From positions 15,157 through 79,156 of the forward strand of contig JABJNO010000006.1 in NCBI GenBank assembly GCA_018664825.1: a stretch of DNA of 64,000 nucleotides. The letters run 5' to 3'. The stretch is from Candidatus Parcubacteria bacterium (GTDB lineage: Bacteria; Patescibacteriota; Patescibacteriia; UBA1558; GWA2-36-10). The translations under genes were made by a program, and so were the position numbers. Shown piece by piece: positions 1,507 through 63,295 of the stretch. The notes beneath the pieces are model-generated. The model was not told the origin of the DNA, did not search any database, and saw only the letters and a program-made list of their open reading frames with translations. The first letter of the stretch is position 1, and each line of letters opens with the position of its first letter.

Positions 1507-1546
1507 GGCCCGGGAAGTAAAACTTCTCGGGCCTCTTTATTTTCCC
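1507..1546 (+). terminator. Intrinsic terminator for the GC-rich gene pair
   Basis: ggcccgggaag-taaaa-cttctcgggcc stem-loop (11-bp stem) followed by tctttattttcc. Confidence 0.6.
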
Positions 1547-1578
1547 GTCCTGAGCGTAGTCGAATGGACGGTTTTTTA
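1545..1578 (+). repeat. Hairpin repeat copy A (ccgtcc-TGAGCGTAGTCGAAT-ggacgg, then T6)
   Basis: 6-bp GC stem closing a 15-nt loop. The loop sequence recurs at about 60897, 63177 and 12173-12231 with different compensating stems. It lies exactly at the boundary between the GC-rich start of the window and the AT-rich remainder. Confidence 0.6.
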
Positions 1579-5127: not shown

Positions 5128-5175
5128 TTTATTATATCAAAAAACCCCGCCAGAAGCGAGGTTTGAATATTTTCA
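5128..5175 (-). terminator. Terminator-promoter cassette copy 1 (hairpin CCTCGCTTCTGGCGGGG + T6 + TGATATAAT)
   Basis: Minus strand: aaacctcgcttctggcggggttttttgatataat. A nearly identical cassette lies at about 9241-9290 and 11803-11870, with a related one at 10176-10262. Confidence 0.55.
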
Positions 5176-5185
5176 TTGCCTATAA

Positions 5186-5437
5186 TCAAGTATTGCTATT
5201 TTTTTCTTTCTCTATAGCCTCTTCGATAAGCTTAATTTTATCTATCCACTCTTGTGGTGCGCTTCCTTTTGTTTCTTCTCTTACTATTTTTGCAGCTTGA
5301 AGTGATCCATTTTTATTTCTCAGCCATTTCAAATACCCACCTCCTGAATATTTGGTCCTGTTGATTTCTAAGGTTTCAGGTGTAATTTCATCAAATTTAT
5401 CTTCGTCGCTTTTGAATAATGATTTAAAAAAATTCAT
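5186..5437 (-). CDS. Small conserved hypothetical protein (about 83 aa), copy 1 of a duplicated gene
   Basis: MNFFKSLFKSDEDKFDEITPETLEINRTKYSGGGYLKWLRNKNGSLQAAKIVREETKGSAPQEWIDKIKLIEEAIEKEKNSNT. About 90% DNA identity to 9297..9548, including its downstream terminator. The start is taken at the Met conserved in both copies; the track start is 5467. Confidence 0.6.
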   Translation of the reverse strand: MNFFKSLFKSDEDKFDEITPETLEINRTKYSGGGYLKWLRNKNGSLQAAKIVREETKGSAPQEWIDKIKLIEEAIEKEKNSNT

Positions 5438-5442
5438 ATTTT

Positions 5443-6156
5443 TTATTTTAATATTGTACCTCCCCACTCTACAACAGCAAAACCTTCTCTGTTGAATGTT
5501 TCTATTGTTTGTGGTTGCAACTCTACCATTTCATCCAATGATTTAAATACTACAAAAACACGCAAAACTGAATCCGGCTTAGGATCTATATCCAATTCTG
5601 CTCTGTCATGATATTCCTCCTTAGTAGCAAAATGAACTAAATTATATTTATTATTCAATAATTGTGGTAACCAATAAACAATAAATTCATTATACTCTTT
5701 TGGAGTTAGGCCGATTTCAGCTAACTTTTCTTGTAGAAAAAATACTGTTTCCTCTCCACTCACAACAAAGCCCGTAGACAAATCATAGTCCACATCTTTG
5801 TTGGATTCTCCCTCCCAAAAAAGATAACTATATTCTCTGTTGTCTTTTAGGTTGATGATTTTACTATCTGGATAAGCAAAGACATTCCAACCATTTTCAT
5901 ATTCTGGATATGTAACTGTAAAAGTGCCCTGATAATTTAGTTGAACATCAATATTTTGAGCTTGAGTTGGATAAAGATAAATAACCGGCTTCCACTCATC
6001 ATAAGGGCCTCCCGGAGGCGAAGATGGTGGCGTAGTTGAGCTCACCTCTTGGACTGGTGGGCTTATCGGCTCTATGTTTTCTGGTTCACTTGTATCTGTT
6101 GTACAAGCTGCACCCATCAGTAATGGAATGATTAAAACTAATAATAATTTTTTCAT
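5443..6156 (-). CDS. Putative lipoprotein
   Basis: Likely start MKKLLLVLIIPLLMGAAC with a lipobox-like LMGAAC. The mature part is Pro/Ser-rich and then globular. This start avoids overlap with the upstream NYN gene. Confidence 0.45.
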   Translation of the reverse strand: MKKLLLVLIIPLLMGAACTTDTSEPENIEPISPPVQEVSSTTPPSSPPGGPYDEWKPVIYLYPTQAQNIDVQLNYQGTFTVTYPEYENGWNVFAYPDSKIINLKDNREYSYLFWEGESNKDVDYDLSTGFVVSGEETVFFLQEKLAEIGLTPKEYNEFIVYWLPQLLNNKYNLVHFATKEEYHDRAELDIDPKPDSVLRVFVVFKSLDEMVELQPQTIETFNREGFAVVEWGGTILK

Positions 6157-6178: not shown

Positions 6179-6724
6179 TTATTTTTTATTAATATATTTC
6201 CTAGGAGCTTTATATACAAACCAGTCTTCTTTGGTTATCTCATAAAAATAATCCGCTTCTTCAACTAATATTCTTGCTGCAGTTTTCTTTACGGCTGCTA
6301 TTTCTACTCTGACTCCCTCACCCTTCAGATGAGACACCAGATCTACATAATCAGAATCTCCAGACATTATTATGATAGTATCAACTTTTGAAGCAAGCTG
6401 TGTAGCTTTGATAGTCAAAGGTATATCTGCTGATTTATGACATGGTATCACTGACCCATAATAATTTTCATGTAACCTTTCTGCAAATTTGGATGAGATG
6501 GATTTCCCTTCACGAAAATATAACAACCTATTCAAACCCCTGCCATTCAATAATTTTGGAATAACTTTATCAAAATCAATCATTGCGCTTTTATTTTTAG
6601 AAACATCGTGAATACTTCTCTCGATATTATTTCCATCACAAAGTATGGCCACAGATTGGTTTATGACCTGTTGTCTTACTTCTGGAATTAAATCGTTGGA
6701 TACTTGATTATTTTTTATCATCAT
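6179..6724 (-). CDS. NYN/LabA-like (DUF88-type) PIN-fold domain protein
   Basis: VAILCDGNNIERS ... IIIMSGDSDYVDLVSHLKGEGVRVEIAAV pattern, typical of LabA/NYN domains. Confidence 0.5.
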   Translation of the reverse strand: MMIKNNQVSNDLIPEVRQQVINQSVAILCDGNNIERSIHDVSKNKSAMIDFDKVIPKLLNGRGLNRLLYFREGKSISSKFAERLHENYYGSVIPCHKSADIPLTIKATQLASKVDTIIIMSGDSDYVDLVSHLKGEGVRVEIAAVKKTAARILVEEADYFYEITKEDWFVYKAPRKYINKK

Positions 6725-9240: not shown

Positions 9241-9292
9241 CAGTATATCAAAAAACCCCACCAGAAGCGAGGTTTAAATATTTTCATTGGCT
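9241..9292 (-). terminator. Terminator-promoter cassette copy 2
   Basis: Minus strand: aaacctcgcttctggtggggttttttgatatact. This is the same cassette as at 5128. Confidence 0.55.
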
Positions 9293-11802: not shown

Positions 11803-11870
11803 TATAATTTGATTATATCAAAAAACCCCGCCAGAAGCGAGGTCAGAACTTTTTGTTATGAAAACCCTGT
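11803..11870 (-). terminator. Terminator-promoter cassette copy 3 (CCTCGCTTCTGGCGGGG + T6 + TGATATAAT)
   Basis: Minus strand: ...cataacaaaaagttctgacctcgcttctggcggggttttttgatataatcaaattat. Confidence 0.55.
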
Positions 11871-12046: not shown

Positions 12047-12122
12047 AATTTTAAAATTAAAAATAAACAACATCTTCATTATACCACAAAACAAAAAACG
12101 AGCTAAGGTTAGCTCACTTTTT

Positions 12123-12231
12123 GACCCCTCGACTCGTTACACTCGCTCAGGACAAGTTGGGTCTCTATCGTAGACCCTGAGCGATTAAAAGGAGTCGAAT
12201 GGGTCGTAGACCCTGAGCGAAGCCGAAGGGT
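12123..12231 (+). repeat. Cluster of three copies of the TGAGCG...TCGAA hairpin repeat: one inverted (12123-12156) and two direct (12173-12205 and 12210-12231)
   Basis: Inverted copy gacccctcgactcgttacactcgctcaggac. Direct copies gaccc-TGAGCGATTAAAAGGAGTCGAAT-gggtc and accc-TGAGCGAAGCCGAA-gggt. A GC-rich patch in an AT-rich spacer. Confidence 0.55.
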
Positions 12232-12266
12232 GGGGTCCTTACGGACCTTAGTTATAACTTAATTAT

Positions 12267-60853: not shown

Positions 60854-60896
60854 AAAATTTCTAGCCAAAATAAACAATAATTTTTTTTAAAACAAA

Positions 60897-60929
60897 TTGT
60901 CTTGAGCGTAGTCGAAAGGCGATTTTTTT
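60897..60929 (+). repeat. Hairpin repeat copy B (ttgtct-TGAGCGTAGTCGAA-aggcga + T7), acting as terminator of the upstream gene
   Basis: Same loop as copy A. The stem forms with two G-U wobbles, which works only in RNA and in this orientation. Followed by ttttttt. Confidence 0.5.
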
Positions 60930-63050: not shown

Positions 63051-63126
63051 GCGGTCGTAGCTCAATGGATAGAGCACTTGGCTTCGGACCAAGGGGTTGT
63101 AGGTTCGACTCCTACCGGCCGCACCA
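63051..63126 (+). tRNA. tRNA-Arg (anticodon TCG), CCA encoded
   Basis: GCGGTCGTAGCTCAATGGATAGAGCACTTGGCTTCGGACCAAGGGGTTGTAGGTTCGACTCCTACCGGCCGCACCA. Anticodon loop CTTCGGA. Confidence 0.85.
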
Positions 63127-63202
63127 TTCGACTCGCTTCGCTCGCTCATGGCCTACGGCCAGAATATGCGAGGCGAATGTCCTGAGCCTAGTCGAAGGAC
63201 AT
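63124..63202 (+). repeat. Inter-tRNA copy of the hairpin repeat: one inverted half (63124-63152) and one direct hairpin C (63177-63202: atgtcc-TGAGCCTAGTCGAA-ggacat)
   Basis: The stem atgtcc/ggacat covaries with ccgtcc/ggacgg of copy A while the loop is conserved. The inverted half begins at the tRNA CCA end. Confidence 0.55.
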
Positions 63203-63219
63203 CAATCATTATCAAGTCC

Positions 63220-63295
63220 GCCCTTATAGCTCAGTCGGTAGAGCAGTTGCCTCTTAAGCAAACGGTCGGGGGTTCAAGTCCCTCTGAGGGCACCA
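63220..63295 (+). tRNA. tRNA-Lys (anticodon CTT), CCA encoded
   Basis: GCCCTTATAGCTCAGTCGGTAGAGCAGTTGCCTCTTAAGCAAACGGTCGGGGGTTCAAGTCCCTCTGAGGGCACCA. Anticodon loop CTCTTAA. Confidence 0.85.

Follow-up and report, generated by a model that had tools for sequence, protein, structure and literature searches.

Dispersed hairpins in a Candidatus Parcubacteria contig as probable orphan copies of an Ssn-type single-stranded DNA repeat with a variant core

Seven small hairpins built around the core TGAGC..TCGAA, four in a short and three in a long form, are dispersed over a 64,000-nucleotide (nt) stretch of a Candidatus Parcubacteria genome (contig JABJNO010000006.1, positions 15,157 to 79,156 of the forward strand), referred to below as the window. 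They are probably orphan copies of an Ssn-type repeat that acts as a hairpin in single-stranded DNA (ssDNA), here with a variant core, and some of them seem to double as terminators. They are called orphans because the 64 kb hold no nuclease gene, and are treated as a variant, not a proven member, of the Ssn kind because the published search pattern fails on them while their architecture agrees with that kind. An earlier sequence-only reading of the same DNA had counted at least seven copies, and seven are indeed present in the window. It had recognised no known family, but the kind was described in 2025 as the Ssn system with its Ssn-related motifs (SRM), although the present core lies outside the pattern published for these.

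In that system, SsnA of Neisseria meningitidis is a 94-residue single-domain GIY-YIG protein (cd10448) that binds its repeat, the NTS (CGTCATTCCCGCGMAVGCGGGAATCYRG), only as ssDNA and on one strand only, cuts a few nt upstream, and is inactive on double-stranded DNA and on RNA (Chenal et al., Nat Commun 2025, PMC11893778). Homologues occur across phyla, 71% of them flanked by SRM and 42% on both sides, with Rickettsia among the SRM-rich genera; the meningococcal enzyme lowers transformation by NTS-bearing DNA, and the authors liken the NTS-ssnA-NTS arrangement to insertion sequence (IS) elements and to REP/RAYT (PMC11893778). The Ssn clade was delimited as cd10448 proteins with BLASTP E<1e-10 to N. 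meningitidis SsnA, and SRM were sought with the pattern HGTCWYN(0-2)YYVSBRHN(0-5)WNVSBRGN(0-2)RNCYNB (PMC11893778). The flanks of these repeats are oriented, with GTCW conserved 5' of the palindrome and a pyrimidine directly 3' of it.

Hairpin copies in the window

The exact core TGAGCNTAGTCGAA occurs at three sites of the window (1551, 60903 and 63183), all on the + strand, and the copy at 12214 carries a core variant with two mismatches to it. The wider pattern CTGAGC-N3-14-TCGAR gave four matches in the window against 0.17 expected (four or more in 0 of 100 shuffles) and adds the long forms at 12128-12150 (-) and 12177-12199 (+); the long-form pattern of these two copies of the 12.1-kb cluster is TGAGCG-N10-GTCGAR. 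A covariance model run on the window with filters off scored all four short forms with E<=4e-4; the long form at 12120-12157 reached E 1.8, and no other match was credible. The copies are listed below with the bit scores and E values of that model.

1545-1571, + strand: copy A, short form; arms ccgtcc (1545-1550) and ggacgg (1566-1571); 25.5 bits, E 1e-4
1551-1564, + strand: core of copy A, TGAGCGTAGTCGAA, with one extra T before the 3' arm; T-run at 1572-1577
12123-12155, - strand: copy E, long form, inverted; core CTGAGCGAGTGTAACGAGTCGAG at 12128-12150; 10.5 bits, E 1.8
12173-12205, + strand: copy F, long form; arms gaccc and gggtc; core TGAGCGATTAAAAGGAGTCGAA at 12178-12199; extra T at 12200
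12210-12231, + strand: copy G, short form; arms accc and gggt; core TGAGCGAAGCCGAA at 12214-12227; 26.7 bits, E 6e-5
60896-60923, + strand: copy B, short form; arms attgtct (60896-60902) and aggcgat (60917-60923); 30.1 bits, E 6e-6
60903-60916, + strand: core of copy B, followed by T7; between the DUF6580 gene and the pilT promoter
63124-63151, - strand: copy D, long form, inverted; the + strand reads CCA-TTCGACTCGCTTCGCTCGCTCA-TGG
63177-63202, + strand: copy C, short form; arms atgtcc (63177-63182) and ggacat (63197-63202); 23.7 bits, E 4e-4
63183-63196, + strand: core of copy C, TGAGCCTAGTCGAA; 17 nt upstream of tRNA-Lys(CTT)

Copies A and C, listed by the sequence-only reading, are present, as is the cluster at 12123-12231 with its one inverted and two direct copies. 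The element at 63124 does abut the CCA end of tRNA-Arg, but it is a complete inverted long form and not the inverted half that had been proposed: its left arm is the CCA 3' end of tRNA-Arg(TCG) and its right arm is TGG. The 22-nt core of this copy is found again in unrelated loci, including phage-like contigs. Copy B, said to close by wobble pairs only, has a stem of five Watson-Crick and two G.T pairs. The stem of copy E is weak, with two Watson-Crick and two G.T pairs, and copy F has an RNA fold of -14 kcal/mol (z -2.7). In four of the window copies GTCY directly abuts the core.

A conserved core with covarying stems

The family extends far beyond the window, with more than 120 loci among the matches listed in each of two collections. 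The scan of one genome per species yielded matches in Cyanobacteria, Bacteroidota, Spirochaetes, Acidobacteria, Verrucomicrobia, Chloroflexota, Ignavibacteria, Nitrospirae, Proteobacteria and several Patescibacteria. Phage-like contigs with the exact 14-mer number more than 120 among the matches listed. About half of these copies have complementary flanks that vary from copy to copy (ccc/ggg, tac/gta, cac/gtg, tgc/gca), and the same loci contain other core variants (GAAGT, GAAGC, CTAGT, GGAGT, a 13-nt YTGT form and the 22-mer of copy D). Searches for real matches among cultured phages (INPHARED) and for the core sequences in literature text returned none. The family core can be written TGAGC(GNAG/CTAG/YTG)YCGAA.

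Position profiles confine family-wide conservation to about 20 nt (Y-N-C, core, G-N-R-Y), and what is conserved beyond lies on the 5' side only. GTCW occupies positions -7..-4 in 47 of 217 solo copies, as opposed to none at the mirror position, and in 1 of 157 gene-flanking copies; Y is frequent at +4.

The compensatory stem changes that had been proposed from the seven copies, too few by themselves to judge, are borne out across the family. In 135 hairpins chosen by the core alone and compared over an 8-bp stem, 71.5% of stem cells are paired against 49.5% after shuffling (exceeded in 0 of 500 shuffles), double-sided changes number 298 against 149±10, and the covariation score is 0.563 against 0.208, with 0.11-0.22 for controls in which the partner columns were slid. 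The consensus DNA fold has -10 kcal/mol (z -3.6). Conservation of the supposed 14-nt loop is likewise upheld as conservation of a core, but comparison with the published NTS hairpin suggests that the loop may itself be a continuation of the stem, made of T-A, tandem G.A/A.G and G-C pairs and closed by a small GNA-type apical loop; ViennaRNA does not model such T-A/tandem G.A continuation pairs.

With F denoting a hairpin in TGAGC orientation and R an inverted one, the spacing from R to F peaks at 20-60 nt, and that from F to R has modes at 20-40 nt and at 300-400 nt. Arrays of alternating orientation occur in several of the compared loci, which are numbered with the prefix L (L176, L224, L246 and L248).

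Several other identities were considered and dropped. A ribozyme reading of CUGA..GAA lacks the hammerhead core bases G8 and A9, and a K-turn-like reading of the same motif was also abandoned; a T7-like phage promoter (CGACT..GGG) would not require the covariation seen over 3 bp on both sides, and in a T-loop/D-arm chimera the base preceding TTCGA is not G. Adjacency to tRNA genes is no general rule, with only four hairpin-tRNA neighbours among 31 tRNAs in 2.3 Mb.

A small GIY-YIG protein as the recurrent neighbour

All-against-all clustering of 2432 open reading frames (ORFs) within 1.5 kb of 262 hairpins yielded a single specific recurrent neighbour family, a protein of about 100 residues starting MKGWLYILECADGSYYTGST; the other recurrent families were generic ABC and two-component ones. 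This neighbour consists of a single GIY-YIG domain (PF01541, E 4e-19). Its best matches of solved structure are the uncharacterised UPF0213 proteins 1zg2 (E 1e-16) and 1ywl (E 4e-12), and NCBIfam contains no model for it. The family is large, with E<=1e-10 in 7968 of 8000 scored clusters.

The linkage was found from both directions. Among 120 genome loci selected by their hairpins, five have a GIY-YIG gene within 600 nt, tightly bracketed by hairpins in four. In the reverse test, which used 80 metagenome loci fetched by the protein alone, a hairpin lies within 300 nt of the gene in 58 loci, compared with 35 hairpins in the other ~270 kb. The nearest upstream copy is in F orientation on the gene strand, 11-52 nt before the ATG, and an R copy overlaps or follows the stop codon, often with more R or F copies after it; the F-to-R mode of 300-400 nt corresponds to the length of the GIY-YIG gene. 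Whether a loop has 13 or 14 nt is only weakly linked to the clade of the protein (permutation p 0.002; 37 of 54 nearest neighbours agree). A second type of partner (L209) scores 56-64 bits against canonical-NTS proteins and has a nearby hairpin CGTCA-TGC-TGAGCGAAGTCGAA-GCA-TC.

These neighbours bear directly on the suggestion of the sequence-only reading that an IS200 or RAYT (HUH) transposase serves the hairpins. It is true that hairpins with covarying stems in alternating arrays resemble BIMEs, and that GTAG is present in many cores and ahead of two window copies. However, no transposase family appeared among the clustered ORFs, where the GIY-YIG nuclease was found instead, and a literature search gave no paper tying GIY-YIG to REP/RAYT. 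A REP/BIME repeat or IS200/IS605 end served by an HUH (Y1) transposase is therefore highly improbable. The broader part of the suggestion, a REP- or MITE-like dispersed hairpin that is the substrate of an enzyme, fits the observed behaviour.

Signs of gene decay and duplication were seen at two loci. L172 carries a nuclease pseudogene with an internal stop codon (5219-5515, minus strand), and in L176 a duplicated 3' gene end (439-495) lies upstream of the intact nuclease gene.

Mobility and the relatives of the window

Two insertion-deletion differences between related contigs show the hairpins as units; a screen with default gap costs had found nothing, and both came from a relaxed screen. 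In phage contigs 76% identical to each other, L002 (8720-8750) has a clean 30-nt hairpin insertion TGGTTGGTGAGCGTAGTCGAACCATCAAAT relative to L097, which enters the 5' end of an ORF without a frameshift. L114 (4467-4504) has, relative to L001, an extra 24-nt tandem copy of the left arm and core. Further tandem arrays, in which left arm and core recur every 21-25 nt before a single right arm, were seen in L266 (~128-190), L194 (359-422) and L183 (1490-1530), and such arrays suggest slippage or copy-choice at the hairpin.

The PilT protein of the window is identical to one listed at NCBI under Candidatus Parcubacteria bacterium. The nearest relatives of the window are Komeilibacteria/Patescibacteria with PilT 84-87% identical, in which the order CobA-DUF4430-DUF6580-pilT-cNMP-tRNA-Arg-tRNA-Lys is syntenic. 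Between CobA and DUF4430, L328 alone has an insertion of ~45 nt with a TGAGC hairpin. The spacer between the two tRNA genes varies as well:

63051-63295, + strand: tRNA-Arg(TCG)/tRNA-Lys(CTT) pair of the window; spacer of 93 nt with copies D and C

In L326 this spacer is empty and 29 nt long, in L328 it measures 122 nt, and in L329 and L327 it spans 369-444 nt and contains a GIY-YIG gene of 88-104 codons. In the window, in L328 and, degenerate, in L329, the CCA end of a tRNA forms one arm of the stem of an inverted copy.

A further arrangement was noted in Patescibacteria, where GIY-YIG genes for 85-104 residues stand immediately 5' of a tRNA gene (Asn-GTT, Lys-CTT or Lys-TTT). Upstream of each lies a partial 5' copy of that tRNA, with the palindrome TCCGCC-ARYT-GGCGGA in place of 7-8 of its nt. 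The combination of GIY-YIG gene and partial tRNA looks like a tRNA-targeting cassette. Its sites are:

L327, 5762-5812 and 6165-6230: tRNA-linked GIY-YIG cassette sites
L329, 5682-5733: tRNA-linked GIY-YIG cassette site
L330, 1443-1481: tRNA-linked GIY-YIG cassette site
L335, 1452-1500: tRNA-linked GIY-YIG cassette site
L334, 1439-1477 and ~1744: further tRNA-linked GIY-YIG cassette sites
L252, ~772-840: further tRNA-linked GIY-YIG cassette site

An alternative is a selfish GIY-YIG cassette, behaving as a transposon or as a free-standing homing endonuclease gene, to which the hairpins would belong as ends or homing sites; solo copies would then be footprints or empty targets instead of sites for a nuclease that serves the host. 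The F-gene-R layout resembles inverted repeats, genes with proteins 75-85% identical are shared by different genera of Bacteroidota and Ignavibacteria and often lie on short contigs, close relatives differ in whether one syntenic site holds the gene, the pseudogene of L172 and the duplicated gene end of L176 would suit such an element, and the Ssn authors themselves remark on the IS resemblance (PMC11893778). On the other hand, the two flanking stems differ within a locus and are thus not true terminal inverted repeats, solo hairpins far outnumber genes, lone 30-nt units insert by themselves, and nucleotide homology between loci ends at the ORF boundaries instead of running through the hairpins. 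The cassette explanation is accordingly quite unlikely as the primary one; it is compatible with an Ssn-type repeat, and the two are not mutually exclusive.

Terminator and RNA-level roles

A role in transcription is best grounded for copy B. At its position an ordinary hairpin with T8 precedes the conserved pilT -10 box in all four relatives (L326-L329); the stems found there are related (GTCY.../...RGACG), and some of the loops keep GAGC.TAG. Since copy B occupies a conserved terminator position, it seems to act as, or to replace, the operon terminator. Its fold has -8.1 kcal/mol as RNA against -1.3 kcal/mol as DNA; the stem requires its two G.T pairs, and DNA parameters give no fold. The description of copies A and B as terminator-like is thus sustained: at least copy B would serve as an intrinsic terminator as well, and copy A probably too. 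For individual copies a terminator or RNA role is plausible, and family-wide it is unsupported.

The wider alternative is that the hairpins are RNA-level elements throughout, either intrinsic terminators or stabilisers of 3' ends, whose conserved loop is unusual and next to which GIY-YIG genes merely insert. It draws on the runs of T6-7 after copies A and B, on the G.U dependence of copy B and the hairpins with T8 at its site in the four relatives, and on the genome loci, in which the TGAGC orientation follows the gene direction in 17 cases against 6 and convergent gaps exceed divergent ones by 24 to 11. The orientation bias relative to genes, which the sequence-only reading had proposed to count, is however opposite in the phage-like contigs (R 18, F 6). 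The hairpins of L043, L110, L029, L106 and L002 sit in 20-50-nt gaps between co-directional genes; in phage-like contigs the next start codon follows after 9-21 nt, and the hairpins are antisense to the orientation that prevails in bacterial genomes.

Further evidence counts against an RNA element. Family position profiles show no T enrichment after the stem (+5..+20), and G.T and A.C pairs in stems number just 51 and 30 family-wide, which makes the strand-asymmetry test for RNA folding weak; the RNA-level structure deduced earlier from the wobble stem hence concerned a single copy and does not carry over to the family. Copy A directly follows a separate canonical terminator, and the 12.1-kb cluster follows a bidirectional one. 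A core conserved across phyla is not needed by a terminator. Rfam returned only four tRNAs for the window at the gathering threshold and nothing at the hairpins of 13 hairpin-rich loci at E<=1. The homologous published Ssn system works on ssDNA and not on RNA (PMC11893778). An RNA-level role for the whole family, which would leave the conserved core, the GIY-YIG linkage and the missing T-runs unexplained, is consequently unlikely.

Other features of the window

The window has a GC content of ~36%, with the exception of its first 1.5 kb. Positions 1-1540 have 50% GC and contain ORFs at 52-597 and 676-1473 with no Pfam match above threshold. This part may be foreign DNA or an assembly join, a reading that rests on the coincidence of the boundary with the terminator at 1506-1534 and copy A. 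Location at compositional boundaries, claimed earlier for the copies in general, holds for copy A and not for the others. For the ORFs next to the window copies, Pfam searches brought no informative match.

1506-1534: canonical terminator, 10 nt before copy A
12159-12247: accessory mini-hairpins among copies F and G, namely gggtct..tagaccc (12159-12177), gggtc-gta-gaccc (12201-12213) and ggtcc-ttac-ggacc (12234-12247)
63150-63176: between copies D and C, mini-hairpin ggcc-tac-ggcc (63150-63160) and a degenerate core-like stretch atgcgaggcgaa

The stretch 12159-12247 also has two copies of the direct repeat cgtagacccTGAGCG. GC-rich mini-hairpins with GTA/TAC-type loops accompany the TGAGC hairpins in both window clusters, and GACCC-AGA-GGGTC in the relative L328 (~2382-2394), beside its hairpin insertion, resembles them. 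A second repeat of the window is a near-identical terminator AAACCTCGCTTCTGGCGGGGTTTTTTGATATA, present three times on the minus strand (5142-5164, 9253-9275 and 11824-11844).

Proposed mechanism and significance

By analogy with SsnA, the hairpins would form in ssDNA and be recognised there by GIY-YIG nucleases of very small size and a single domain. Such a nuclease would bind the TGAGC..TCGAA strand of the single-stranded hairpin and nick it a few nt upstream, the single-stranded state arising, for example, during replication, transformation or repair. It would thereby act on ssDNA carrying the repeats, and the repeats may spread or persist through its activity in the manner of REP/RAYT.

A number of observations weigh against this explanation. 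The SRM pattern overlaps none of the 10 + 225 + 241 + 248 + 4 core matches (>700), although it does match NTS controls and the canonical copies in L203 and L218. A search of the 64-kb window with the hidden Markov model of the GIY-YIG family found no such gene. For the MKGWLYILEC-type partner, comparison with YazA/UPF0213-like proteins gives 67-81 bits and comparison with canonical-NTS proteins 47-52 bits, and YazA-like genes from viral contigs are without flanking hairpins. The GIY-YIG proteins of L327 and L329 belong to a distant subfamily (E 1e-8 to 1e-10) and are flanked by a different palindrome and tRNA fragments, without good TGAGC hairpins. Stems measure only 3 bp in solo copies, as against 6-8 bp in the copies that flank the gene, where they take the form CCGNTNNC. 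Finally, the orientation relative to genes reverses between genome loci and phage-like contigs, and the site of copy B indicates that some copies may be kept for transcription alone.

A more specific and doubtful extension of the Ssn-type explanation is that TGAGC..TCGAA marks a second, undescribed Ssn-like branch. This possible branch would combine an imperfect hairpin, a spread from Bacteroidota to the candidate phyla radiation (CPR) and phages, and a UPF0213-related GIY-YIG clade of at least ~8000 clusters in place of the cd10448 Ssn clade. Its units of ~30 nt would move alone, even in frame, and in Parcubacteria it would intersect with a 5'-tRNA GIY-YIG cassette that lies beside a truncated tRNA with the palindrome TCCGCCAGCTGGCGGA.

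Among site-specific nucleases, those of the Ssn type are, to our knowledge, alone in cutting nothing but ssDNA, and their development into tools is under way. A distinct core and partner clade would add new ssDNA-nuclease specificities, and the published SRM search pattern would be shown to undercount such systems. For annotation, the repeats account for a very common source of assembly breaks and falsely called small ORFs in contigs of Bacteroidota, Ignavibacteria, CPR and phages. In this Parcubacteria genome they mark intergenic hot spots, such as tRNA spacers and terminator regions, where close relatives exchange a GIY-YIG gene and small elements. Organisms of the Parcubacteria type are thought to depend on DNA uptake.

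Comparison with known systems

Rho-independent terminators share with copies A and B a stem and T-run at the 3' end of a gene; the present family differs from them in a core conserved across phyla, in the lack of a T-run in most members and in the separate canonical terminators alongside. Rickettsia palindromic elements are small palindromic repeats of ~100-150 nt, able to enter coding regions without disturbing the frame. The likeness, by description only, is with the unit of L002 in frame with a phage ORF, and the difference is one of size, the units here being ~30 nt.

Closer parallels exist with the REP/BIME-RAYT systems, which also feature extragenic hairpins of 20-40 nt, variation that preserves structure, alternating clusters, and one small repeat-flanked gene serving many orphan copies. 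The enzyme fold, however, is GIY-YIG instead of HUH, and no RAYT occurs near the hairpins; moreover, REP are conserved in a 5' GTAG/CGTC tag and the stem, whereas here it is the centre of the hairpin that is conserved. With respect to the enzyme, the UPF0213 proteins of YazA/YhbQ type (1zg2, BH0048; 1ywl, EF2693) are the best structure match and have the same size and single domain, but the hairpin-linked clade has a C-terminal REKQ.QGWSRKKKEALI segment that resembles Ssn-type proteins.

The most instructive comparison is with Ssn/NTS itself. The NTS is a perfect palindrome, TTCCCGC..GCGGGAA, whereas the present repeat has the core TGAGC..TCGAA, whose stem would be interrupted by T-A and tandem G.A, and this core aligns in place of the inner perfect stem CCGC..GCGG of the NTS. 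The partner clade is also nearer to UPF0213 than to canonical-NTS Ssn by bit score. The two repeat types rarely share a locus: a single TGAGC copy was found in 1.08 Mb of NTS loci, with L203 as the reverse exception. Canonical NTS-like repeats (CGTCATTCCCGCG[A/T]AGGCGGGAATCCCC) were observed at 6253-6280 and 7158-7185 of L203 and at 7799-7826 of L218, which are Bacteroidales and other metagenome-assembled genome loci fetched through a TGAGC-type hairpin. In the canonical locus L440, an NTS in F orientation lies 37 nt before the GIY-YIG gene and one in R orientation 7 nt after it. The same order of repeat, gene and inverted repeat is found where TGAGC hairpins bracket a GIY-YIG gene for ~94-100 residues. 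Both systems further share many short hairpin copies, a spread over multiple phyla and the apical sequence GCG-NAG-(Y)C. An oriented, non-palindromic flank may be common to them as well, since an NTS-like 5' GTCW tag is present in about a quarter of the solo copies, though in only 1 of 157 gene-flanking ones.

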